Under the pieces are notes generated by a model. It was not told where the DNA came from. It made no database searches and saw nothing but the letters and a program-made list of their open reading frames with translations. DNA of 64,000 nt from Acidimicrobiales bacterium (GTDB taxonomy: Bacteria; Actinomycetota; Acidimicrobiia; Acidimicrobiales; RAAP-2): assembly GCA_052148295.1 (NCBI GenBank), contig JBKQIP010000174.1, positions 16,256 through 80,255 of the forward strand, in the 5' to 3' direction. The translations under genes and the position numbers were made by a program. This document shows, piece after piece, positions 14,559 through 26,228 of the stretch (within the stretch, counting starts at the first letter, position 1; each line of letters starts with the position of its first letter).

Positions 14559-16204
14559 GGCCCCTGCGCCGGATATGGCGCGAGCCGGGAACGCCGTACG
14601 GGCGCCTGGCCCTGGCCGGCGCGCTCGGGCTCCTCTCGGCGGCGGCCACCATCGCCCTCATGGCCGGGTCGGGCTACGTCCTGGGTCGGGCCGCCCAGCG
14701 CCCGGGACTGGACGCGCTGGTCGGGATACTGGCGGCGGTCGAGGTGGTGGCCTTCCTGCGCGGACCCCTGCGCTACGCCGAGCGCCTGGTGGGCCACGAC
14801 GCCGCCCTGCGGGCCCTGGCCGGGTGGCGCATCTGGCTCTACGACTGCCTGACGCCACGCGTGCCCGCTGCCCTGGCCGGCTGGCGCAGCGGCGACCTCT
14901 TGACCCGCGCCATCGACGACGTCGACACCCTGCAGGACCTCTACCTCCGCACCGTGCTGCCCCTCGGTGTGGCCCTGGGTGCCGCCCTGCTGGGTCTGGT
15001 CGTGGTCGGCCTCATCCTGCCCGTGGCCGTCCTCGCCCTGGGCGTCCCACTGCTGATCGCCTGCACCGTGCCACCGGCCCTGGTCTGGCGGCCCGGTGCC
15101 GACGACGAGGAGTCGGCCCTGGCGGGGGAGATCTCGGCGCACGTGGTCGACATGATCCACGGGGCGGCCGACCTCCTGGCCTTCGGCGCCGAAGATTCCG
15201 CCTTCGGCCGGCTGGACGAGATGAGCCGGCGGTCCGAGGCCCTGGCGCGCCGCCAGCACCGGTCGGCCGCGCTGGCCGCCTTCACGACGCAACTGTGCGT
15301 GGGCGCGGCGCTGACCGCGGTCCTGGCCGTCGCCGTGTCCGCCGTGCACGCGCACCACCTCGACCCGGTCATGGTGGCCGTCCTGCCCCTGGCCGCCCTG
15401 GCCACGTTCGAGCCGGTCCCCGGCGTGACCCAGGGCACGGCCCGCGCCCTGGCGGTCCGCGCCGCCGCCCGCCGCCTCCTGGCCCTCGAGGCCGTGCCGG
15501 TCCCGATCGGCGACCCCGGCGTCCCCCGCTCGCTCCCCGAGGGCACGCCGGACGTCTCCTTCGCGCGGGCGTCGTTGCGCTACGGGCCCGGGCTGCCCCG
15601 GGCGCTCGACCGGGTCGACCTGCACCTGGCCCCGGGAGGACGGGTGGCCGTGACCGGCTCCAGTGGCGCCGGCAAATCCTCCCTGGTCAACGCCCTCCTT
15701 CGCTTCTGGCCGCTGGAGGGCGGCACGTTGCAGCTGGGCCACGTGGCGACCGACGAGCTGACGCAGGCCGAGGTGCGGGCCGCCTGCGCCCTAGTCGACC
15801 AGCGCGCCCAGTTGTTCGCCGGCACGCTGCGGTCCAACCTGACCCTGGGACGCCCCGACGCCACCGATGAGGAGATCGGCAGGGCCCTCGACGCCGCCCA
15901 GCTCAGCGGCTGGGTGGCCGGGCTCCCGGCCGGCTTGGAGACGCCCGTCGGTGATGAGGGCGTCGCCCTCTCCGGAGGCGAGCGCAGGAGGGTGACCGTG
16001 GCCCGAGCGCTCCTGGCCGGCGGCCGGGTGCTCGTGCTCGACGAGCCGACCTCCGGACTCGACGACGAGGTGGCCGACCGGCTCATCGGCGACGTCTTCC
16101 GCGCCGCGGGCGATCACAGCGTCCTCCTGATCACCCACCGGCCCGCGGAGGCCGACCGCTGCCAGACCACCGTCACCCTCGAGGCGGGCCGCGCCGTTCC
16201 CTGA
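14555..16204 (+). CDS. cydC: ABC exporter, fused permease/ATPase, CydC-like
   Basis: TMD plus NBD with Walker A GSSGAGKSS, signature LSGGERRRVTVARAL and Walker B LVLDEPT. The GTGA overlap with the previous gene fits a heterodimeric exporter. Confidence 0.6.
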   Translation: MRPLRRIWREPGTPYGRLALAGALGLLSAAATIALMAGSGYVLGRAAQRPGLDALVGILAAVEVVAFLRGPLRYAERLVGHDAALRALAGWRIWLYDCLTPRVPAALAGWRSGDLLTRAIDDVDTLQDLYLRTVLPLGVALGAALLGLVVVGLILPVAVLALGVPLLIACTVPPALVWRPGADDEESALAGEISAHVVDMIHGAADLLAFGAEDSAFGRLDEMSRRSEALARRQHRSAALAAFTTQLCVGAALTAVLAVAVSAVHAHHLDPVMVAVLPLAALATFEPVPGVTQGTARALAVRAAARRLLALEAVPVPIGDPGVPRSLPEGTPDVSFARASLRYGPGLPRALDRVDLHLAPGGRVAVTGSSGAGKSSLVNALLRFWPLEGGTLQLGHVATDELTQAEVRAACALVDQRAQLFAGTLRSNLTLGRPDATDEEIGRALDAAQLSGWVAGLPAGLETPVGDEGVALSGGERRRVTVARALLAGGRVLVLDEPTSGLDDEVADRLIGDVFRAAGDHSVLLITHRPAEADRCQTTVTLEAGRAVP

Positions 16205-16321: not shown

Positions 16322-16434
16322 CCACCCTCCGGCCCCGTCGGCGGAGACCCGGCACCCGAAATGCCTGCATGGGGGCTGTCCGGCCAGCGACGAGATACCC
16401 GGGTGTGACCTGCCCTTACCGAGCGCTTACCGTG

Positions 16435-17907
16435 ATGGCGCACAGTGAGCGGCGTGAGAGACTGCGCAGCAACCGGCGTCGGGCGAAGGAGGACAACGTG
16501 CCCGGTTCGGGTCCAGTGCCCACCGGGTACGGAAGCGTCGCAGTCGCGGCCGACCGTCGGGGAAGAAGGGTTGACTCGGAAGCGGGGGACGCGCCGGTGA
16601 TGGTGACGACGGAAACCGTGAGCGCCGTGCGGACGCTGCCCGTCCCCCCTGGCTCGCGCCCCCGCTCCACGCCGGTGCGCCTCCGCGTCTTCGCCGTGGC
16701 GTTGGTCCTCCTGGTCGTGCTGGCCGGACTGGTGGCCGGCCTGGCCACGTCCAACCGACAGAGTGCGACCACGGCGGCGGCCCAACAGGCGGAGCCGCTG
16801 CTGGTCTCGGCGCAGACCATCAACACGTCACTCTCCGACGCCGACAGCACGGCCGCCGCCTCGTTCCTGCGGGGCCGGCTCGAACCGGCGGCGCTTCGTG
16901 ACCGCTACGCCGCCGACGTGGATCAGGCCTCGACCGCACTGGCCACGGCCGCTCAGGAGGCAGGTACGGATCCCGCGGTCACGTCGTCATTGGCCGCTGT
17001 GTCGACCGAGGTGCCCGTCTACACCGGGCTGGTGCAGACGGCCCTCTTCAACGAGCGTCAGGCCTACTACCCGCTGGCCGCCTCCTACCTCGGCGAGGCC
17101 AACAACCTGATGCGCACCCGGATCCTGCCCGCCGCCACCCAGCTCTATGCCACCGAGCGCGCCCGTCTCGCCGCCGACGAGGGGAACGCGGTCAACCCGT
17201 GGCTGGCCGCCGCGGCGGGGCTCAGCGTGGCCGTCCTGCTGGTGCTGCTCGTAGGGGCCCAGTGGTGGATGAGCCGCCACTTCCGCCGGACGCTCAACGT
17301 TCCGCTGGTGACGGCCACCGTGCTCATCGCCGCCCTCGGTCTGTGGTTCGCCATCGCCCTGGTGGCCCAGGGCTCCGGCGTGACCACGGCCACGAGCCGG
17401 GGGTCGGGCCCCATCGACACCTACACGCAGGCCCGCATCCTCGCCCTCGAGATGCGGGCGGACGACGAGCTGACCCTGCTCACCCTGGACTCGGTGCCCA
17501 CGTACCAGCAGGACTACACCGCCGCCGCCGACCGCCTCGAGGCCCTGTTGGCCTCGTCGGGCGCGGTCGCAGGCGCCGAGCGGCCGCAGGCGGCGCACGC
17601 CCGCGCCGCCTTCGCCGCCTACACCAGAGTGCACCACCACATCCGCAGCCTGGACAGCGGGGGCAATCTGGACGGGGCCGACGCCGTGGCCTCCGGGCCG
17701 GCCGCGACGGATCTCCCGGCGGTGTCGTCGGATCTGGACACGGTGCTCACCGATGACATCTCCGGATCCCAGGGGACCTTCCACAGTGCGATGGCGGCGG
17801 CCACCGGAGATCTCGACGGCGTCCTCGTGGCCATCGCCCTGCTGGCGCTGATCTCGGCCGTGCTCGTCCTCGTCGGCTTCCAGTCCCGGATCGCGGAGTA
17901 CAGGTAG
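16435..17907 (+). CDS. glnX: GlnX-like integral membrane protein (4 TM helices with two long extracytoplasmic helical regions)
   Basis: Track ORF 16369..17907. TM segments are VFAVALVLLVVLAGLVAGLA, WLAAAAGLSVAVLLVLLVGAQWW, LVTATVLIAALGLWFAIALVA and LVAIALLALISAVLVLVGF. Its position directly upstream of glnH-pknG matches the known glnX-glnH-pknG arrangement. The start is uncertain (16369, 16435 or later). Confidence 0.7.
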   Translation: MAHSERRERLRSNRRRAKEDNVPGSGPVPTGYGSVAVAADRRGRRVDSEAGDAPVMVTTETVSAVRTLPVPPGSRPRSTPVRLRVFAVALVLLVVLAGLVAGLATSNRQSATTAAAQQAEPLLVSAQTINTSLSDADSTAAASFLRGRLEPAALRDRYAADVDQASTALATAAQEAGTDPAVTSSLAAVSTEVPVYTGLVQTALFNERQAYYPLAASYLGEANNLMRTRILPAATQLYATERARLAADEGNAVNPWLAAAAGLSVAVLLVLLVGAQWWMSRHFRRTLNVPLVTATVLIAALGLWFAIALVAQGSGVTTATSRGSGPIDTYTQARILALEMRADDELTLLTLDSVPTYQQDYTAAADRLEALLASSGAVAGAERPQAAHARAAFAAYTRVHHHIRSLDSGGNLDGADAVASGPAATDLPAVSSDLDTVLTDDISGSQGTFHSAMAAATGDLDGVLVAIALLALISAVLVLVGFQSRIAEYR

Positions 17908-17911
17908 GACC

Positions 17912-18925
17912 ATGCGACACCGTCACCCGACACCCCGGCGGCTCTCGCCCAGGACGATCACCGTCGTGCTGATCGGCACCGCGCTGGGCCTGGCCGGCTG
18001 CGGTACCGCTCCCGACGCGTCACGCCTCCCTCCGGCGGCGGTGCGGATGGCACCGCTCCTGCCCGCCTTTGCCGAGATCGTCCACCCCTCACCGCCCCCA
18101 CCGGCTCCGCCAGGTTGCACCGACCCGACGGCGAGCTCTGCACCTCCGGCCACCATGCCCGCCCCGGGCGACATGCCGGCCGGAAGCTGGATGTCCCACA
18201 TCCTCGCCCGGGGTTACCTGATCGTCGGGACCGGCCAGTCCACCTACGACTGGGGCTACCGGGACCCGGTCACGGGCCAGCTGAGCGGGTTCGACATCGA
18301 CATGCTGCGCCAGGTCAGCCAGGCGATCTTCGGCTCGCCGGACCGGATCCGCTTCGTGGTCGTCAACAACGACCAGCGGGTCCAGGCGGTACGGTCGGGC
18401 CAGGTCGACATCCTGGCCGAGACCATGACCATCAACTGCGCGCGTGAGAAGTACGTCGACTTCTCGACGGTCTACTTCGAGGCCGGTCAGGAGATCCTGG
18501 TGCCGACCGACTCGACCATCAGCGGCCCGTCCGACCTCAACGGAAAGCGCGTGTGCGCCACCTTCGGATCGACCTCCCTGCAGAACCTGGTCAAGGTGGC
18601 ACCCCGAGCCATTCTCTGGGCGGTTCAGAACGAGACCGACTGCCTTGTGATGCTCCAGCAGGGCCAGGTCGATGCCATCAGCACCGACAACGCGATCCTG
18701 CAGGGGCTGGCCGCCCAGGATCCCAACACCAAGATCGTGGGACCGCCCTTCACCTCCGAGCCCTACGGCATGGCCATCAGCAAGGCCCACCCCGAATTCA
18801 CGTCGTTCGTGAACGGCGTGTTGGCCCAAGAGCGGGCCGACGGCACCTGGGCCGCCATCTACGAGAAATGGCTGGGTCCCAACCCGCCGGCTCCGCCGGT
18901 GGCCACCTACACGGAGGCACCATGA
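17912..18925 (+). CDS. glnH: GlnH-like periplasmic amino-acid (Asp/Glu/Gln)-binding lipoprotein, SBP family 3
   Basis: Lipobox LGLAGCG. Blocks YDWGYRDPVTGQLSGFDIDMLR, ETMTINCAREKYVDFSTVYFEAGQ, GKRVCATFGSTS and DAISTDNAILQGLAAQDP closely resemble mycobacterial GlnH as I remember it. Confidence 0.85.
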   Translation: MRHRHPTPRRLSPRTITVVLIGTALGLAGCGTAPDASRLPPAAVRMAPLLPAFAEIVHPSPPPPAPPGCTDPTASSAPPATMPAPGDMPAGSWMSHILARGYLIVGTGQSTYDWGYRDPVTGQLSGFDIDMLRQVSQAIFGSPDRIRFVVVNNDQRVQAVRSGQVDILAETMTINCAREKYVDFSTVYFEAGQEILVPTDSTISGPSDLNGKRVCATFGSTSLQNLVKVAPRAILWAVQNETDCLVMLQQGQVDAISTDNAILQGLAAQDPNTKIVGPPFTSEPYGMAISKAHPEFTSFVNGVLAQERADGTWAAIYEKWLGPNPPAPPVATYTEAP

Positions 18926-20130
18926 GCACCCCGTCGCTCGACGCCATCGACCGGCGCCTCGCGAAGGTGGACACGATCGTGCAGCACATGGGGGAGAACC
19001 TGGTCGAACTCGACGCCGACGTCACCCGCCAGATGCTCGGAGCCTCCCCGAGCCTCACGGGACGGACAGCCGAGGCCTGGCGGCTGGCCGACGCGCAGCT
19101 GGCCGATCTCTGGCGCGGCCACGTCGCGCTGAAGGATCTCCTCGAGGCGATCGCCCATGAGCGCGGCACCAGGTCGTCCGTCCCCAGGGCCGCCCTCGGT
19201 CGCGTGGCCGCCCTGCTGGACGGGCCGTCGGTCTCACTGCCCAGCCCCGACCCGACCGGGCACCGCACCCTGACCGAGGGGGCGGACCCAACGGTCCCGT
19301 GCACGATCGACGAGCTGATCGACCAGATGTCCGCCGGCTACGACTCGGTGGTGGCGCTGGTCACGGCCGTGGGGTCGGTCTGGACCGAGACGGTGCCGGA
19401 GCTCACGGCGCTCGAGGCGCAGGTCGACCGGCTCGAGGCCACGGTCCGCGAGACCGGGTGCCGCCCGCCGAACGACCTGGCCGCCGCCCGGCGGGCCCTG
19501 GCGGAGGCCCAGGCGACGGCCCGCCATGACCCTCTCTCCCTCCCCGCCGGACTCGCACCGTCCATCACCGTCACGGTGGACCGGGCCACGGCATCGATCC
19601 GGGACGCCGCCGCGGCGAACCGGCAGCTGGCCGCCGAGAGAGCCGATCTCTCCTCGGCGCTCGACGACGGCGATGCCCGCCTGCGCCGTGCCCGCGCCGA
19701 ATGTCGGGCCATCGTCGAGAGGATCGTGCTGCCCCACACGGTCTGGGAGGATCTCGACCGGGCCGAAGCCGAGCTCGTCGGGCTGCACGCCGAGTTCGCC
19801 GCCCTGACCGCAACCGCCGGCGACGGGGCGGCGGCGCGTCGGTCGGTGGCCGCGCTGGCGCGGCGCACCGACCGCCTCAGTCGACACCTGGCGCGGCTCG
19901 AGGATTGTGGCGCCACCGACCTGGCCAAGCGCGACGAGCTGCGGGGCCGTCTCGACGCCTACCGGGCCAAGGCTCGGGCCATCGGCCTGGGTGAGGACAT
20001 CGAGCTCGACCGTCGCCAACGCGAGGCCGACGAGCTCCTCTACAGCGCACCGTGCGACGTTCGGCGGGCCGAGGATCTCGTATCCCAGTTCGAGCGCGCC
20101 GTCCGGGCCGGTGACGAGGGGGCGCGGTGA
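18922..20130 (+). CDS. Hypothetical all-helical (coiled-coil-like) cytoplasmic protein, 402 aa
   Basis: This is the in-frame part of track ORF 18553..20130, from ATG 18922. ATGA overlaps the glnH stop and GTGA overlaps the pknG start. It is Ala/Leu/Arg/Glu/Asp-rich with heptad-like stretches (LTALEAQVDRLEATVRE, ELRGRLDAYRAKARAIGL). No TM segment or recognisable enzymatic motif is present. Confidence 0.7.
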   Translation: MSTPSLDAIDRRLAKVDTIVQHMGENLVELDADVTRQMLGASPSLTGRTAEAWRLADAQLADLWRGHVALKDLLEAIAHERGTRSSVPRAALGRVAALLDGPSVSLPSPDPTGHRTLTEGADPTVPCTIDELIDQMSAGYDSVVALVTAVGSVWTETVPELTALEAQVDRLEATVRETGCRPPNDLAAARRALAEAQATARHDPLSLPAGLAPSITVTVDRATASIRDAAAANRQLAAERADLSSALDDGDARLRRARAECRAIVERIVLPHTVWEDLDRAEAELVGLHAEFAALTATAGDGAAARRSVAALARRTDRLSRHLARLEDCGATDLAKRDELRGRLDAYRAKARAIGLGEDIELDRRQREADELLYSAPCDVRRAEDLVSQFERAVRAGDEGAR

Positions 20131-22517
20131 CGGCGACCTGCGAGCGACCCGCGTGCACCGGTCAGATGGTGGACGGGTACTGCGACGTCTGCGGCCTGGC
20201 CCCCGCGGATCCCTCTCGGCGTACGACGGGGCTGGGCCGACCGCCGTCGCCGGTGACCAGGGGCAGCGACCCCCAGCCGTGCGGCCGACCCGGATGCGAC
20301 GGGAAGATCGAGGACGGGTACTGCGATGTCTGCGGCCTGGCCCCTTCGGGTCCGTCCTCGCGCACGGCGGGGCTGGGCGCGGGGCCGACCGCGGGGACCA
20401 GCGGCTCCGCCTCGTCCCTGGGCACGGCGACCTTCCGGTCGGGTACCGGCACGGCCACGGGGCAGCACACCGGTGCCGGCTCGCGCCGCGACCGGGGCCA
20501 CCTCGGTGCCGGTCTCGTCGAGATACCCGCCGTCCCCTCCCGCGACCCGCTGTCCGTGGTGCTGGCCGACCCCGAGGTCCCCGAGCGCAAGCGCACCTGC
20601 GCCCGCTGCGGGCATCCGGTCGGGCGGAACCACGAGGGTCGGCTCGCCCGCACCGAGGGCTTCTGCCCGCACTGCGGTGCGGCCTACTCGTTCACGCCCA
20701 AGCTCAGGCCCGGCGACGTCGTGGGCGGCCAGTACCAGGTGACGGGATGCATCGCCCATGGCGGCCTGGGCTGGATCTACCTGGCCCAAGACTTGAATCT
20801 GGACGGCAAGTGGGTGGTGCTCAAGGGCCTGCTCGACTCCAACGACGAGTCGGCGAAGGCGGCGGCGATCGCCGAACGCCGCTTCTTGATCGAGGTCGAT
20901 CATCCCGACATCGTCAAGATCTACAACTTCGTCCAGCACGAGGACGCCGGCTACATCGTGATGGAGTACGTCGGCGGGGCATCCCTGCGGGAGGTGCGCA
21001 ACCGTTGCCGGGACGAGACCGGCGCTCCCCTGCCGGTGGCGCAGGCCATTGCCTACGCGCTCGAGATCCTTCCCGCCTTCGGATATCTGCACCGCCGCGG
21101 GTTGCTCTATTGCGACTTCAAGCCGGACAACGTGATCCAGACCCACGAGCAACTCAAGCTCATCGACCTGGGGGGCGTCCGCGCCATCGGCGACGAGGAC
21201 AGCGATCTCTACGGCACCGTCGGCTACCAGGCACCCGAGGTACCCGAGGACGGGGCATCGATCTCGTCCGACCTCTACACCGTGGCCCGGACCCTGGCGG
21301 TGCTCAGCCTCGATCTCCCCGGCTTCCAGGACGAGAAGCGCTTCGCCACCAGCCTGCCACCGGCGCGTGAGGTCCCCCTGTTCGGCCGCTACGAGTCGTT
21401 TCACCGGTTCCTCAAGAAGGCCACTGCCGCCGATCCGGCCGCCCGCTTCCAGACGGCGGCCGAGATGGCCGACCAGCTGCTCGGCGTGCTGCGGGAGGTC
21501 GTCGCCCTCGACGGCGGCCAGCCGGCGCCCGCGCCGAGCGCCCACTTCAGCGCCGAACTCGGCCCGGCCACCGACGCCGGCGCCTGGCCGGACCTGCCCG
21601 TTCCCTCCGTCGACCCCTTCGACCCGGCCGCCGGGCTGTTGGCCACAGCGGCGCTCTCCAGCCCTGACCAGGTCCGGTCCATCCTCGAATCGGCTCCCCC
21701 CTCGCCAGAGCTGGCCTACCACTTGGCCCGCTCCCTCATCGAGGAGGGGGACTTCGCCGGGGCCGAGCGCCAGCTCGAGACGCCCGAAGCCGGCATGTCC
21801 GCCTGGCGCGTGGCCTGGTGGCGGGGTGTGCTGCACCTGGCCGCCGACCGACCCCGCGTGGCCCAGACCTTCTTTGCCGTGGTGGCGGGCGAGCTCCCGG
21901 GGGAACTGGCGCCGAAGCTGGCCCTGGCGCTCGCTCTCGAGAACGCGGCGGACCGCTCCGGTTCGTCGCCCCCCGGCGGGAGCACGGTCCCCACCGGTGC
22001 CGACGACGTGGACGAGGCGGCCCGCCTCTACGACCTCGTCGCCGCCACCGACCCGGGGTTCGCCAGCGCGAGCTTCGGACTGTGCCGGGTGCGGCTGTCC
22101 CGCCGGGACCGCGACGGCGCGGCGGCGGCACTGGCGCGCATCGCCGCCTCCTCCGGGGCCCACCAGGCGGCGCAGACCGCCCTGTGCCGCCTGCGCTGTG
22201 CGGATATGGGCGGCGTGCCGCCGGGCCTGAGCGACCTCGCCTCGGCCGCCGCGGTCCTCGAGCACCTGAAGGTCGAGCCCTCGCTGCGCCTCCCATTGCT
22301 GCGCGATCTGCTGGGTCAGGCCCTCCGTGTGCTCACCGATGGGCGGGCCGCCCCGGACGAGCACACGGTTCTCGTCGGCACACCCTTCACCGAGGTCGAC
22401 GTCCGGGCGGCCCTCGAGCGGACGTACCGGTCGCTGGCCAAGCTGGCCGGGACCGACGGCGAGCGCTTCGAGCTGGTCGACCTGGCCAACGCCCATCGCC
22501 CGCGGACCCTGACATGA
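20127..22517 (+). CDS. pknG: Ser/Thr protein kinase PknG (two extra N-terminal Zn-ribbons, rubredoxin-like CxxCG pair, kinase domain, TPR domain)
   Basis: Rubredoxin motif: CARCGHPV...CPHCGAAYSF. Kinase blocks: GGQYQVTGCIAHGGLGWIYLAQD, VVLKGLL, AERRFLIEVDHPDIVKIYNF, GYIVMEYVGG, LLYCDFKPDNVI and LIDLGGV (the DLG variant typical of PknG). TPR block: WRVAWWRGVLHL...FPGELAPKLALALALE...ASASFGLCRVRL. Confidence 0.9.
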   Translation: MTATCERPACTGQMVDGYCDVCGLAPADPSRRTTGLGRPPSPVTRGSDPQPCGRPGCDGKIEDGYCDVCGLAPSGPSSRTAGLGAGPTAGTSGSASSLGTATFRSGTGTATGQHTGAGSRRDRGHLGAGLVEIPAVPSRDPLSVVLADPEVPERKRTCARCGHPVGRNHEGRLARTEGFCPHCGAAYSFTPKLRPGDVVGGQYQVTGCIAHGGLGWIYLAQDLNLDGKWVVLKGLLDSNDESAKAAAIAERRFLIEVDHPDIVKIYNFVQHEDAGYIVMEYVGGASLREVRNRCRDETGAPLPVAQAIAYALEILPAFGYLHRRGLLYCDFKPDNVIQTHEQLKLIDLGGVRAIGDEDSDLYGTVGYQAPEVPEDGASISSDLYTVARTLAVLSLDLPGFQDEKRFATSLPPAREVPLFGRYESFHRFLKKATAADPAARFQTAAEMADQLLGVLREVVALDGGQPAPAPSAHFSAELGPATDAGAWPDLPVPSVDPFDPAAGLLATAALSSPDQVRSILESAPPSPELAYHLARSLIEEGDFAGAERQLETPEAGMSAWRVAWWRGVLHLAADRPRVAQTFFAVVAGELPGELAPKLALALALENAADRSGSSPPGGSTVPTGADDVDEAARLYDLVAATDPGFASASFGLCRVRLSRRDRDGAAAALARIAASSGAHQAAQTALCRLRCADMGGVPPGLSDLASAAAVLEHLKVEPSLRLPLLRDLLGQALRVLTDGRAAPDEHTVLVGTPFTEVDVRAALERTYRSLAKLAGTDGERFELVDLANAHRPRTLT
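20171..20354 (+). repeat. Intragenic direct repeat: two 33-nt copies (20171-20203 and 20322-20354, 1 mismatch) encoding the duplicated DGYCDVCGLAP zinc-ribbon knuckle
   Basis: Read directly: ggacgggtactgcgaCgtctgcggcctggcccc versus ggacgggtactgcgaTgtctgcggcctggcccc, 151 nt apart. The two protein repeats are C-x4-C-x9-C-x2-C modules (CERPACTGQMVDGYCDVCG and CGRPGCDGKIEDGYCDVCG). Confidence 0.9.
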
Positions 22518-23506
22518 GCACGACCGAACCGGGCGGGGCGGAGATGGCGCAGGAGGACTGCGCCGGCTGCGGTGCGCCCATGTTCGAGCAGGAGCGCTTC
22601 TGTGAGGTCTGCGGGGCGCGGGTGGGTCCCGAGCCCGAGCCGGAGCCCGATCCCCCCCGGCCCACTGCGCCGATGCAGCGGGTGGAGCAGGACCTCGGCG
22701 TGGTGGCCGCCGTGTCGGACCGCGGCCGGCGTCGGCCGCGCAATGAGGACGCCATGGCCCTGGCCACCTTCGAGGGTCGCAGCGCGGTGGTGGTGTGCGA
22801 CGGGGTGGCGTCGACCGCCAATGCCCACGAGGCCTCCCGGGTCGCGGTGGAGATGGCGATCCGGGTGCTCGAGGCGGCGCTGCGCCACCCTCCGTCCGAC
22901 CCCGAAGCCTGGGACCGACTCTTCGTCGAGGCGTGCGCCGAAGCACAGATCGCGGTGGCCGACGTGGATGCCGAAGGGAGCGGCCTCGCGCCCTCGACGA
23001 CCCTCGTCGCCGTGATGGCCACGCCGGGCCTCATCGCGGTGGCCAACATCGGCGACAGCCGCGCCTACCTGCTCGACGGCACACCCGAGGGGGGACGATG
23101 CCTCACCGTCGACGACACCTGGGCCGAGGAGATGATCGCGGACGGAGATCCACCGGAGCTGGCGTACGCCGACCCCGACGCGCGCACGATCACCCGGTGG
23201 GTGGGGGCGGACGCGGCATCGGTGCGGCCCGCGGTGACCGTGAGCGCGGTCGACCGGCCCGGCGTGGTCGTCGTGTGCACCGACGGCCTGTGGGACTACT
23301 TCGACCGGCCGTCGGCCCTGGCCGCGCTGGCGGAAGAGCCGGCCGGCTCGGCGCCGCTGGCCCTCGCCCGGCGCCTGGTCGAAGCGGCGCTGGCGGCCGG
23401 CGGCCGGGACAACGTGACGGTCGCCGTGGTGCCGGTGGCACCGGCGGTTGCGGGCGCCACACCGGGATCCGCGGTACCGACCATCGAAACGACGAGCGAG
23501 GAGTGA
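22514..23506 (+). CDS. PP2C-family Ser/Thr phosphatase with N-terminal zinc ribbon
   Basis: ATG 22514 overlaps the pknG stop (ATGA). Zn ribbon: CAGCGAPMFEQERFCEVCGARV. PP2C motifs: RRRPRNEDA, VVCDGVAS, IGDSRAYL, CTDGLWD and GGRDNVTVAVV. Confidence 0.9.
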   Translation: MSTTEPGGAEMAQEDCAGCGAPMFEQERFCEVCGARVGPEPEPEPDPPRPTAPMQRVEQDLGVVAAVSDRGRRRPRNEDAMALATFEGRSAVVVCDGVASTANAHEASRVAVEMAIRVLEAALRHPPSDPEAWDRLFVEACAEAQIAVADVDAEGSGLAPSTTLVAVMATPGLIAVANIGDSRAYLLDGTPEGGRCLTVDDTWAEEMIADGDPPELAYADPDARTITRWVGADAASVRPAVTVSAVDRPGVVVVCTDGLWDYFDRPSALAALAEEPAGSAPLALARRLVEAALAAGGRDNVTVAVVPVAPAVAGATPGSAVPTIETTSEE

Positions 23507-23511
23507 GCACC

Positions 23512-24783
23512 ATGCCCGAGTTCCGCATCGAAGCGTTCCAGAACGAGTTCCTCCCCGATGGGGCCCGCGTGATGAACGCCGTGGTCACGGTGACCGCCGA
23601 GGGGACCGCCAACGGTGCCGGCGCGGCCGGGCCGGCGGCCGACCGGGCCGAGGTGATAGTGCTCGACACGTCCGGTTCGATGGATGGGAAGAAGCTCCGC
23701 GAGGCCAAGGCGGCCACGGCGGCTGCCATCGACTGCCTCCCCGACGGCGTCCGCTTCGCCATCGTCCAAGGCAATCACCAGGCGGACCTGGTGTACCCGA
23801 CCTCGGCACGGCTGGCCGTCTCCTCGCCCACCGCCCGCGACGCGGCGAAGAGGTCGACCAAGAAGCTCGCCGCCGGCGGTGGTACCGCGTTCGGAACCTG
23901 GATCCGCCTCACCGCCCAGCTCCTCGACGACGAGCCGGGCCTCCGACACGCCATCCTGCTCACCGACGGCAAGAACGAGAGCGAGGCCCCCGGAGGCCTC
24001 GAGGACGCGTTGGTCCAGGCCGAAGGGGTCTTCCAGTGCGACTGCCGGGGGGTGGGCAGTGACTGGCAGGTGGCCGATCTGCGCCAGATCGCCACCGCCC
24101 TCCTCGGGACCTACGACATCGTCGCCGATGCGTCCGGGCTCAGCGCGGACTTCGCCGCCATGATGCACGACGCCCTCAGCAAGGAGGTCGCCGAGGTCAC
24201 GCTGCGAGTCTGGGCGCCCCAGGGTGCCGCGGTGGAGCTGGTCAAGCAAATGGCACCGGTCATGATCGATCTGGCCCCGTTGCGCGCCGAGGCGGGGCCG
24301 TTGGTCGTCGACTACGCCACCGGCTCGTGGGGTGACGAGTCCCGCGACTACTACGTGAGTGTGCGGGTGCCCCCGGGGCAGGTCGGCGACGAGATGCTGG
24401 CGGCGCGGCTCACCCTCCTGGTCGGCGGTGAGCCAGCGGGACAGGCCCTCATCAGGGCCGTGTGGACCGACGACACCGCCAAATCGACCCAGATCAACGG
24501 GCGGGTGGCCGAGGCCATGGGCGAGAAGGAGCTGGCCGACGCCATACAGGGAGGGGTCGACGCCCTGCGTGACGGCGACACCGACACGGCGACGAGCCGC
24601 TTCGGCCTGGCCAGGCGACTGGCTGCCGGGACCGGGAACGACGACGCCCTGGCCCGCCTGGACGCGGTGGTGGTGGAGGCGGACCCGCTGACCGGTCGAG
24701 TGCGGCTCAAGGGAACGGTCGACGACATGGACGTGATGATCCTCGAGGCCAAGTCGACGCGCACGGTGCGGACACGCAAATGA
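23512..24783 (+). CDS. von Willebrand factor A (vWA) domain protein with an uncharacterised ~230-aa C-terminal region
   Basis: ATG 23512 lies 5 nt after the PP2C stop. MIDAS motifs are VLDTSGSMDG, AGGGTAFG and LLTDGKNE. The C-terminal half has no motif I recognise. Confidence 0.85.
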   Translation: MPEFRIEAFQNEFLPDGARVMNAVVTVTAEGTANGAGAAGPAADRAEVIVLDTSGSMDGKKLREAKAATAAAIDCLPDGVRFAIVQGNHQADLVYPTSARLAVSSPTARDAAKRSTKKLAAGGGTAFGTWIRLTAQLLDDEPGLRHAILLTDGKNESEAPGGLEDALVQAEGVFQCDCRGVGSDWQVADLRQIATALLGTYDIVADASGLSADFAAMMHDALSKEVAEVTLRVWAPQGAAVELVKQMAPVMIDLAPLRAEAGPLVVDYATGSWGDESRDYYVSVRVPPGQVGDEMLAARLTLLVGGEPAGQALIRAVWTDDTAKSTQINGRVAEAMGEKELADAIQGGVDALRDGDTDTATSRFGLARRLAAGTGNDDALARLDAVVVEADPLTGRVRLKGTVDDMDVMILEAKSTRTVRTRK

Positions 24784-26228
24784 GTGAGAAGAGCTCGAAC
24801 GGGTCCGCCGCCGCACCGCGTCCGGCGAGCGCGAGGACCCCGACGGCGACGGCGGAGCCGGAACCCTCGCGGCAGTGCCCGAACTGCGGGTCGTTCCCCG
24901 AGACGGAGGCGGCCTGCGTGGAGTGCGGCTACCGCTTCGACGCGCCGGACAGCGTCCCGGTGTGGGACGAGCAGCTCTGGGAGGTGGTGGTGCGCCCGGA
25001 CCGCCAGTACTACGAGATGATCGAGCCCGACGGTCTGGAGTTCCCCGAGGCGCCGCACAACCGGCGCGTCGCCCTCCTCGGCGACCATGTGCGCATCGGG
25101 CGGCGCAGCACGCGACGGGGCATCACCCCCGAGATCGACCTGTCGGGGACCCTCGAGGACGTGGGCGTGTCGCACCGCCATGCCGTGCTCATGCGCCAAC
25201 CCACCGGCGACTGGGCCCTGGTCGATCAGGACTCGGCGAACGGCACCTATCTCAACGCCGACCGGGACCCCATTACCCCCAACCACCGGGTGCCGCTGCG
25301 GGACGGTGACCAGATCCACGTCGGAGCCTGGACGACCCTGACCGTCGAGCGGGCCGAGGCCGGCGGGAGCAGATCGGCCGAGGTCAGCACCCCTTCGAAG
25401 GACACCCGCAACGTGGCCCGGAGCCGGCTGGACCTCGAGATCGGCCTGCTCGGGCCGCTCCAGGTCGCCGTGGCCGGGACGGTGACGAGCATCACCGCGC
25501 CCAAGGCCCGCGCCGTGCTGGCCCTGCTGGCCCTGCGCATCGGATCCGCCGTGACGACCGGGGACCTCGAGTGGGCCTTGTGGGGGGACGACGAACCGAG
25601 GACGGCGGACACGGCCCTGCGGGGCTACATCTCGGCGCTGCGGCACATCCTCCCGGCCGGGGCCATCGAGACCACACCGCAGGGCTATCGGTTCACCGGA
25701 CCGAAAGAGATCGTCGACATCCACCGTTTCGAGCGTCGGAGCGTGCGGGGTCGAGAGCTGCTCGCCTCGGGCCACCCCGGGTCCGCGGTGGCCGAAATCA
25801 CCCGGGCCCTCGACCTCTGGCGGGGGGACCCGATCCCCGACCTGGCCGACGGCCCGGCCGGCCTCAGCGAGGTGACCCGCCTGCGCGAGCGCAAGGCGGG
25901 CACCGAAGAGGACCTGTTCGAGGGCCGCCTGCAGCTGGGCGACCACCAGGGTGTCCTCCCCGACCTCAGCGTGGCCGTCGAGGCGGAGCCGCTGCGCGAG
26001 CGGAGGTGGAGACAGCTCATGCTCGCCCTCTACCGCGACAGCCGGCAGGCGGAAGCCCTGCAGGCCTTCCAGCGCTTCCGCGCCATCCTCGGCGAGGAGC
26101 ACGGGGTCGAGCCCTCGGCCGCGATCGGGGACCTGGAGCGGGACATCGTGCTGGACAAGCCCGAGCTGCGCTGGACCCCGCCCGGCACGGCCGGCACGGC
26201 CGGCGGGGCGCCGGCTACCTCGGGTTGA
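24780..26228 (+). CDS. Zn-ribbon + FHA + SARP/AfsR-type (winged-helix + BTAD) transcriptional regulator
   Basis: ATGA overlaps the vWA stop. Zn ribbon: CPNCGSFPETEAACVECGYRF. FHA: VRIGRR...GVSHRHAVL...DSANGTYLN...GDQIHVG. wHTH: IGLLGPLQVAV...ALLALLAL...TALRGYISALRHIL. BTAD: RERRWRQLMLALYRDSRQAEALQAFQRFRAILGEEHGVEPS. Confidence 0.85.
   Translation: MSEKSSNGSAAAPRPASARTPTATAEPEPSRQCPNCGSFPETEAACVECGYRFDAPDSVPVWDEQLWEVVVRPDRQYYEMIEPDGLEFPEAPHNRRVALLGDHVRIGRRSTRRGITPEIDLSGTLEDVGVSHRHAVLMRQPTGDWALVDQDSANGTYLNADRDPITPNHRVPLRDGDQIHVGAWTTLTVERAEAGGSRSAEVSTPSKDTRNVARSRLDLEIGLLGPLQVAVAGTVTSITAPKARAVLALLALRIGSAVTTGDLEWALWGDDEPRTADTALRGYISALRHILPAGAIETTPQGYRFTGPKEIVDIHRFERRSVRGRELLASGHPGSAVAEITRALDLWRGDPIPDLADGPAGLSEVTRLRERKAGTEEDLFEGRLQLGDHQGVLPDLSVAVEAEPLRERRWRQLMLALYRDSRQAEALQAFQRFRAILGEEHGVEPSAAIGDLERDIVLDKPELRWTPPGTAGTAGGAPATSG

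Follow-up and report, generated by a model that had tools for sequence, protein, structure and literature searches.

The gene at positions 24780-26228 of the 64,000-nucleotide Acidimicrobiales stretch analyzed here (the window; contig JBKQIP010000174.1, positions 16,256 to 80,255) encodes a forkhead-associated (FHA) domain fused to a SARP-type transcriptional activator, and it lies at the end of an operon for a Ser/Thr kinase and a phosphatase. The question raised by this locus is which signaling system the FHA-SARP protein serves and which promoters it controls. The FHA-SARP gene is the last of a tightly packed sensory cassette of seven genes. Domain content, gene order in related genomes and a conserved promoter element make it probable that the FHA-SARP is the transcriptional output of this cassette, that it switches on the cassette itself and a few cell-envelope genes, and that its activity is set by the PknG-type kinase encoded within the cassette. 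To our knowledge, the transcriptional output of bacterial Ser/Thr kinases is rarely known. One operon holds all the parts here, namely the GlnH/GlnX sensor, the kinase, the phosphatase and a fusion of phospho-reader and activator, so the hypothesis is testable with few proteins and oligonucleotides though the organisms are uncultured. The predicted DNA site comes with a short list of targets that is conserved across species.

The FHA-SARP open reading frame (ORF) is on the forward strand, is open throughout and translates into 482 residues; the G+C content of the window is about 72%. A first-pass annotation of the locus had described the protein as the domain set of EmbR in reverse order, with a zinc ribbon (ZnR), FHA, a winged helix-turn-helix (wHTH) and BTAD following one another, and this description is borne out by Pfam, by the cysteine pattern and by AlphaFold2 and Foldseek. 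Pfam detects FHA at residues 104-182 (E 7e-12), Trans_reg_C at residues 240-305 (27.7 bits, where the cut-off is 26.2) and BTAD at residues 312-456 (E 4e-38). The best partial NCBIfam matches are AfsR over residues 196-464 and OdhI over the FHA part, and phmmer gives E-values of 6.5e-30 to AfsR and 1.5e-29 to EmbR. Conservation was counted in an alignment of 32 full-length homologues. The zinc-ribbon residues C33, C36, C46 and C49 are kept in all 28 homologues that cover the region, and the proposed GR...SxxH...NG motifs of the FHA domain correspond to residues G107, R108, S131, H134, N154 and G155, which are invariant (32/32). The zinc ribbon is present as claimed, with the amendment that most homologues have two N-terminal ribbons and the window protein has the second only.

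The AlphaFold2 model of the FHA-SARP (predicted local distance difference test score (pLDDT) 84, predicted TM-score (pTM) 0.79) contains a disordered linker at residues 196-214 where the pLDDT falls below 50. Foldseek superposes the N-terminal half on FHA domains and the C-terminal half on the SARP domain of AfsR (8k60, TM-score 0.92, root-mean-square deviation (rmsd) 1.8 Å) and on EmbR (2ff4, rmsd 1.5-1.6 Å). An OmpR-type wHTH that leads directly into a BTAD domain is the family feature of SARPs, and the FHA-SARP protein is a member of this family.

EmbR of Mycobacterium tuberculosis is a SARP with a C-terminal FHA domain and is phosphorylated by PknH. Both proteins combine an OmpR-type wHTH, a BTAD domain and an FHA domain, both couple a phosphothreonine reader to a SARP and both have a Ser/Thr kinase as partner, and the phosphothreonine-binding residues of the FHA domain are intact throughout the FHA-SARP alignment. 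The FHA-SARP is not of the EmbR type because its domain order is ZnR-FHA-wHTH-BTAD instead of wHTH-BTAD-FHA, with the FHA domain at the N-terminus behind one or two zinc ribbons. EmbR matches residues 218-461 only. Judged by percent identities, the SARP part is closer to the N-terminal modules of large SARPs, which are the closest SARP domains outside the family (46-51%; one example is a 1759-residue Mycobacterium protein), than to EmbR (31%), and the FHA domain is closest to GarA/OdhI. The FHA-SARP family further differs from EmbR in having a PknG-type kinase in the same operon and a conserved threonine motif in the linker.

The cassette runs in the order GlnX, GlnH-like binding protein, 402-residue helical protein, PknG-type kinase, PP2C phosphatase, vWA protein and FHA-SARP. 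These seven genes are colinear in each of the 31 loci with enough flanking sequence for tblastn comparison, and the FHA-SARP gene is always last. The ABC exporter genes upstream and the DUF2889 and histidine-phosphatase genes downstream are not conserved beside the cassette in related loci. The claimed translational coupling to the vWA gene is seen as an ATGA start/stop overlap at 24780-24783, and the kinase that had been called PknG-like and placed 2 kb upstream has the PknG_rubred, Pkinase and PknG_TPR domains in Pfam. It is the sole PknG_TPR kinase of the genome.

A GlnX-family transducer with four transmembrane (TM) segments, a binding protein and PknG with its rubredoxin, kinase and TPR domains are thus encoded together, in the glnX-glnH-pknG order of the PknG-GarA/OdhI system of Corynebacteriales. 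The two systems also share, as the likely substrate, an FHA protein with a pT-x-x-hydrophobic motif nearby. A separate GarA orthologue is present in addition, and GarA, the FHA-SARP or both may be substrates of the kinase. The cassette differs from the PknG-GarA system by four extra genes (helical protein, PP2C, vWA protein and FHA-SARP), by two extra zinc ribbons on the kinase, and by the fusion of the FHA substrate to an activator, so that the output would be transcription and not enzyme inhibition. The kinase orthologue of locus L032 has three zinc ribbons.

The TerY-P triad consists of a vWA protein, a PP2C and a Ser/Thr kinase (Anantharaman et al. 2012 as cited in PMC10542128). The cassette matches this gene set, since its kinase and PP2C genes lie next to one for a TerY-like vWA protein with VWA_3_C, and the signaling proteins of both systems have zinc ribbons. 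If the kinase-PP2C-vWA part of the cassette were a TerY-P-like conflict or defense module, the FHA-SARP would switch on defense or stress genes (phage, metal) instead of an amino-acid output. The match in gene set fits this explanation, as does the nature of the predicted targets, which are uncharacterized envelope proteins, but we regard it as very improbable. The kinase is a PknG orthologue that ends in PknG_TPR and shares its operon with a GlnX-family transducer and a GlnH-like binding protein; its zinc ribbons are N-terminal, and the C-terminal kinase zinc ribbon of TerY-P systems (an OB fold in defense variants) is not found. The triad is embedded between the GlnX/GlnH sensor and the FHA-SARP, and the cassette is not within a variable island with other defense genes. 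PADLOC models match neither the vWA protein nor the FHA-SARP; they give a single weak, unnamed match to the PP2C, and those to the kinase are generic only.

The operon promoter contains a predicted binding site for the FHA-SARP. The sequence upstream of the glnX-family gene reads CCCTTACCGAGCGCTTACCG-TGATGGCG-CACAGT and contains TTACCG-N5-TTACCG, two repeats exactly 11 bp apart, and no -35 element. All 32 orthologous upstream regions contain [C/T]TTAC[C/T]G-N5-TTACCG followed, after 8 nt, by TACCGT, TACGGT or CACAGT. In SARP promoters the repeats are spaced by 11 or 22 bp, and 8 bp separate the 3' repeat from the -10 element, which is CACTGT in afsS (PMC10936776). A box with these properties lies ahead of the protein's own operon in 32/32 species and ahead of three more genes in this genome. 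The conserved cassette promoter has the architecture of SARP-dependent promoters, and binding by the FHA-SARP is predicted on this basis. The likeness to AfsR and the small Streptomyces SARPs extends from the SARP fold to this 22-bp predicted box of two 11-bp repeats with a weak -10 and no -35 element. The differences are the absence of NOD/TPR domains and of an antibiotic gene cluster, and the repeat sequence TTACCG. AfsR contacts bases through T88 and R92 (PMC10936776), and the equivalent positions of the FHA-SARP appear, in a sequence alignment read by hand, to be G282 and A286.

The location of the predicted promoter also bears on the start of the glnX-family gene, which is probably GTG 16498 and not 16369 or 16435. 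ATG 16369 and ATG 16435 were rejected on account of their positions before or within the predicted promoter, and the long ORF from either codon probably over-extends the gene. GTG 16454 was considered as a leaderless start; it is out of frame, and GTG 16498 with its strong ribosome-binding site (RBS) fits better. Many orthologues have their start codon only 7-9 nt past the -10 element, which suggests leaderless mRNAs.

The first-pass annotation gave the regulon as unknown, and this entry can be replaced by a sequence-based prediction that consists of the SARP box and four target promoters. A 24-bit position weight matrix (PWM) scan of the 4.25-Mb genome returned exactly four sites, which score 30.5, 30.1, 25.9 and 24.8 bits. 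The next-best score in the genome is 16.6 bits, and the controls reached 20.2 bits in the reversed genome and stayed below 19 in shuffled sequences. All four sites are correctly oriented and directly upstream of ORFs, and the three sites outside the cassette each lie 8 nt from a -10-like hexamer. Pfam recognizes only vWA, bPH_6 and DUF4389 in the predicted target proteins. The relaxed pattern TTACY-N6-TTACC-N10-A-N3-T occurs 66 times in 15 genomes with the FHA-SARP compared to 2 times in the reversed control, and it has zero occurrences in 13 of 15 genomes without the FHA-SARP, including genome G111 that has the rest of the cassette. The box was present in 16/16 genomes with the FHA-SARP.

Across species the predicted targets fall into conserved groups, among them orthologues of the three further targets of this genome. 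The groups are the cassette operon itself, a divergently transcribed exported repeat protein, a TM-vWA paralogue and a bPH-domain membrane protein. The TM-vWA paralogue carries the box whether its gene is located right after the FHA-SARP gene, as in several species, or on another contig, as here. Two more groups consist of proteins like the C78 target, in four genomes, and proteins like the C92 target, in two. The predicted divergent targets (L035 1329 -, L046 1164 -, L056 1037 - and similar) are exported and carry tandem repeats, each about 40 residues long, that follow LNxPIVGMAxTPDGxGYWxVxxDGGVFxxGDAxFxGS and have no Pfam match.

Conserved motifs provide a candidate link between the kinase and the activator. 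The linker between the FHA and wHTH domains is variable and disordered except for an island, P-S-K-D-T-R-N-V-A-R, in which T209 is present in 31/32 homologues and the +3 residue is always V, L, I, F or M. Many FHA domains prefer pT-x-x-hydrophobic, and the T209 motif fits this preference. Conserved in the N-terminus of the kinase are a [G/D]-T-x-T-[VLIF]-[RK] motif and, behind it, the segment GAGLVE(I/M)P, which we take to resemble the corresponding segment of M. tuberculosis PknG. The suggestion that the FHA-SARP is the output of the PknG-like kinase gains support from these conserved pT-x-x-hydrophobic motifs and from the synteny in 31/31 loci.

These features lead to the following model. 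Each repeat would be occupied by one FHA-SARP protomer, and the two neighboring protomers would recruit RNA polymerase in the way known for AfsR, so that the cassette would drive its own expression and that of a small envelope regulon. How active the FHA-SARP is would depend on the PknG-type kinase and the PP2C, in the pattern of PknG and GarA. The FHA domain may dock on the autophosphorylated G-T-x-T-hydrophobic motif of the kinase N-terminus, and the docked kinase would then phosphorylate T209 in the linker (K-D-T-R-N-V). The FHA domain could bind pT209 in cis, as a latch beside the DNA-binding domain, or in trans to give head-to-tail dimerization, and either event would alter SARP dimerization, DNA binding or RNA polymerase recruitment until the PP2C reverses the phosphorylation. 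At the input end, GlnH and GlnX probably sense an extracellular amino acid. All steps that go beyond domain content, synteny and motif conservation we infer, taking the PknG-GarA system as the analogy for the phospho-switch.

The only role known to us for the amino-acid-sensing pathway of PknG is post-translational: it controls the 2-oxoglutarate node by way of GarA/OdhI. A tentative extension of the model, possible but more doubtful than the model itself, is that in these Acidimicrobiales the pathway also has a dedicated, positively autoregulated transcriptional arm in which a GarA-like adaptor joined to a SARP and latched by phosphorylated T209 drives a small envelope regulon that includes the membrane-tethered vWA paralogue. 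We know of essentially no outputs of vWA-PP2C-kinase triads, and such an arm, if true, would be the first defined output of a cytoplasmic triad of this kind.

Several points weigh against the assignment of the FHA-SARP as the kinase-controlled output of the cassette. DNA binding, phosphorylation and a transcription start site near 16453 are all predicted, phosphorylation may either activate or inhibit, and the model assigns no role to the vWA protein or the 402-residue protein. The metagenome-assembled genome (MAG) is 4.25 Mb with 7.2% contamination, and the rest of its GTDB family, with genomes of about 2 Mb, has neither PknG nor the cassette. Either contig C174 or the MAG itself may be wrongly placed; the remaining three box sites lie on different contigs of this MAG. 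The vWA tail, [RK]-S-[TV]-R-T, is an alternative FHA ligand. One other SARP domain is encoded in the genome of the window, on contig C66. Five TTACCCCGCTG-TTACC boxes occur in G014, a complete Acidimicrobiales genome that lacks the FHA-SARP, and OmpR/PhoB-type response regulators bind direct repeats of similar geometry, so geometry alone is no proof of a SARP.

The second SARP domain of the genome and the G014 boxes would fit an alternative in which the TTACCG repeats are the site of an OmpR/PhoB-family response regulator, such as PhoP or GlnR, or of the genome's other SARP, with the FHA-SARP controlling other promoters. PhoB and PhoP boxes are likewise 11-bp direct repeats that replace the -35 element, and TTTACC resembles GTTCACC, the core of the Streptomyces PHO box. 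We consider this improbable in view of the distribution of the box, which is found in every FHA-SARP genome searched, is absent from 13/15 genomes without the protein (G111 included) and without exception accompanies the promoter of the FHA-SARP's own operon. There are only four sites in the genome and all are accounted for, so no typical phosphate or nitrogen gene is among the targets. The G014 boxes (for example G014:C1 957533-957563) are each followed by a -10-like hexamer; they indicate that related boxes serve other regulators and may represent the regulon of another SARP. Genome G100, which also lacks the FHA-SARP, has one site, and it adjoins a SARP gene.

The vWA tail raises a different alternative, in which the FHA-SARP is controlled via the vWA protein. 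The kinase and the PP2C would set the phosphorylation of the vWA tail or of the kinase itself, the FHA domain would bind that phospho-site, and the regulator would be sequestered away from the DNA or released to it in the manner of a partner-switching anti-activator. The vWA and FHA-SARP genes overlap at ATGA and are always adjacent, the tail motif is conserved, a membrane-anchored vWA paralogue is in the predicted regulon, and TerY-P triads are thought to be phosphorylation switches centered on the vWA protein. The first Thr of the tail is, however, Val in several orthologues and its +3 residue is not consistently hydrophobic, whereas the motif around T209 in the linker shows stronger conservation and agrees with the pTxx-hydrophobic rule. 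We regard control through the vWA protein as unlikely compared with control through T209. In the metagenomic protein P0126 (785 residues; JGI metagenome 3300047160, 13.9-kb contig), vWA and VWA_3_C are joined directly to a SARP like that of the FHA-SARP, and there is no FHA domain. It was rejected as a Rosetta-stone link and counts as weak support because its gene context differs: its neighbors are a small SARP and an ECF sigma factor, and no kinase or PP2C is nearby.

Table 1. Features of the cassette, its predicted promoter and the predicted targets (window coordinates; residues are those of the FHA-SARP)
Feature	Position	Strand	Basis
Predicted SARP box, two 11-nt direct repeats (TTACCG 16416-16421 and 16427-16432)	16412-16433	+	32/32 upstream regions; PWM 30.5 bits
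-10-like hexamer CACAGT, 8 nt past the downstream repeat	16441-16446	+	Sequence; SARP geometry per PMC10936776
RBS GAAGGAGGA before the glnX-family gene	16485-16493	+	Strong RBS
GlnX-family membrane transducer, likely GTG start 16498	16498-17907	+	NCBIfam NF058618, 350.9 bits vs cut-off 250
GlnH-like family-3 solute-binding protein	17912-18925	+	Pfam SBP_bac_3; NCBIfam amino-acid-binding protein models
Conserved 402-residue all-helical protein, unknown fold class	18922-20130	+	AlphaFold2 pLDDT 91; colinear in 31 loci
PknG-type Ser/Thr kinase, two extra N-terminal zinc ribbons	20127-22517	+	Pfam PknG_rubred, Pkinase, PknG_TPR
Zinc-ribbon PP2C phosphatase	22514-23506	+	Translation; NCBIfam Stp1/PP2C
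Cytoplasmic vWA protein (VWA_3 + VWA_3_C)	23512-24783	+	Pfam; conserved C-terminal [RK]-S-[TV]-R-T tail
ZnR-FHA-wHTH-BTAD gene, 482 residues	24780-26228	+	ORF, Pfam, AlphaFold2, Foldseek, ATGA overlap with vWA stop
Zinc ribbon CxxC-x9-CxxC, residues 33-49	24876-24926	+	Cysteines in 28/28 covering homologues
FHA with conserved N-terminal extension, residues 62-192 (Pfam FHA 104-182)	24963-25355	+	Pfam, invariant pocket, Foldseek
Linker motif P-S-K-D-T209-R-N-V-A-R, candidate phospho-acceptor and FHA ligand	25392-25421	+	Conservation; function inferred
OmpR-type winged helix, residues 219-305	25434-25694	+	Pfam Trans_reg_C, alignment to AfsR/EmbR, Foldseek
BTAD helical domain, residues 312-456	25713-26147	+	Pfam E 4e-38, Foldseek
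Predicted target, 299-residue exported or membrane protein	contig C92
Predicted target, 896-residue multi-TM protein whose C-terminal part is a vWA/VWA_3_C paralogue of the operon vWA	contig C171
Predicted target, 180-residue membrane or exported protein	contig C78

The distribution of the FHA-SARP family was determined in several collections. A word-indexed search found more than 100 full-length FHA + Trans_reg_C + BTAD proteins with 50-76% identity. Acidimicrobiales MAGs and metagenomes are their only sources, and the names given to them do not go beyond 'DNA-binding SARP family transcriptional activator' or 'BTAD domain-containing putative transcriptional regulator [Acidimicrobiales bacterium]'. 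About 35 species of the GTDB species set have a full-length relative, all of them Acidimicrobiaceae/Acidimicrobiales MAGs and mostly from soil, and samples of 200 class genomes and 300 order genomes contained no further full-length copy. The family is reduced to one representative plus fragments in a 1.84-billion-protein library clustered at 50% identity. A profile search of this library revealed no other SARP with an N-terminal FHA domain among the best 150 matches listed, beyond which more distant fusions may lie; the remaining top matches among these 150 are ordinary, large or tandem SARPs. Matches in two stretches with N-terminal extensions were considered as FHA-SARPs and turned out to be tandem or large SARPs. 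Full-text literature searches found no paper on a SARP with an N-terminal FHA domain. The architecture is common in that it has more than 100 members, but it is not an already characterized family, as its annotation is generic only and it is confined to uncultured Acidimicrobiales. The FHA-SARP is a real, conserved and uncharacterized protein that now has a specific regulon prediction.

The origin of the fusion is best seen in G111, a complete genome from another family of the same order and the only one among ten other Acidimicrobiales genomes that has PknG. Its cassette encodes GlnX, GlnH, the helical protein, PknG, PP2C and the vWA protein and ends in a stand-alone 246-residue double-ZnR-FHA protein without a SARP (L135 = G111:C1:3612000-3631999, 15352-16092), beyond which lies a convergent epoxide hydrolase gene. 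Since this cassette ends in a SARP-less ZnR-FHA protein and the nearest SARPs are not EmbR, the sequence comparisons indicate that an FHA adaptor already present in the cassette most probably gained a SARP module at its C-terminus, independently of EmbR. The independent domain shuffling proposed in the first-pass annotation is supported by the same cassette together with the reverse domain order, the closest SARP domains and the GarA/OdhI-like FHA domain. The locus would then document the change of an FHA adaptor into a transcription factor by gain of a SARP, in parallel to EmbR.

The 402-residue protein has a confident model but matches no known family and no fold in the PDB, where the best Foldseek E-value is 0.2, and its gene is colinear in all cassettes, including the SARP-less one of G111. 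The GarA/OdhI-like ZnR-FHA gene of the genome is on another contig (C36; L004 1462-2007, -) in gcvH-garA-merR synteny, an arrangement that is typical of actinobacteria. Its product also starts with a CxxC...CxxC zinc ribbon, so ZnR-FHA may be a recurrent module in this lineage.

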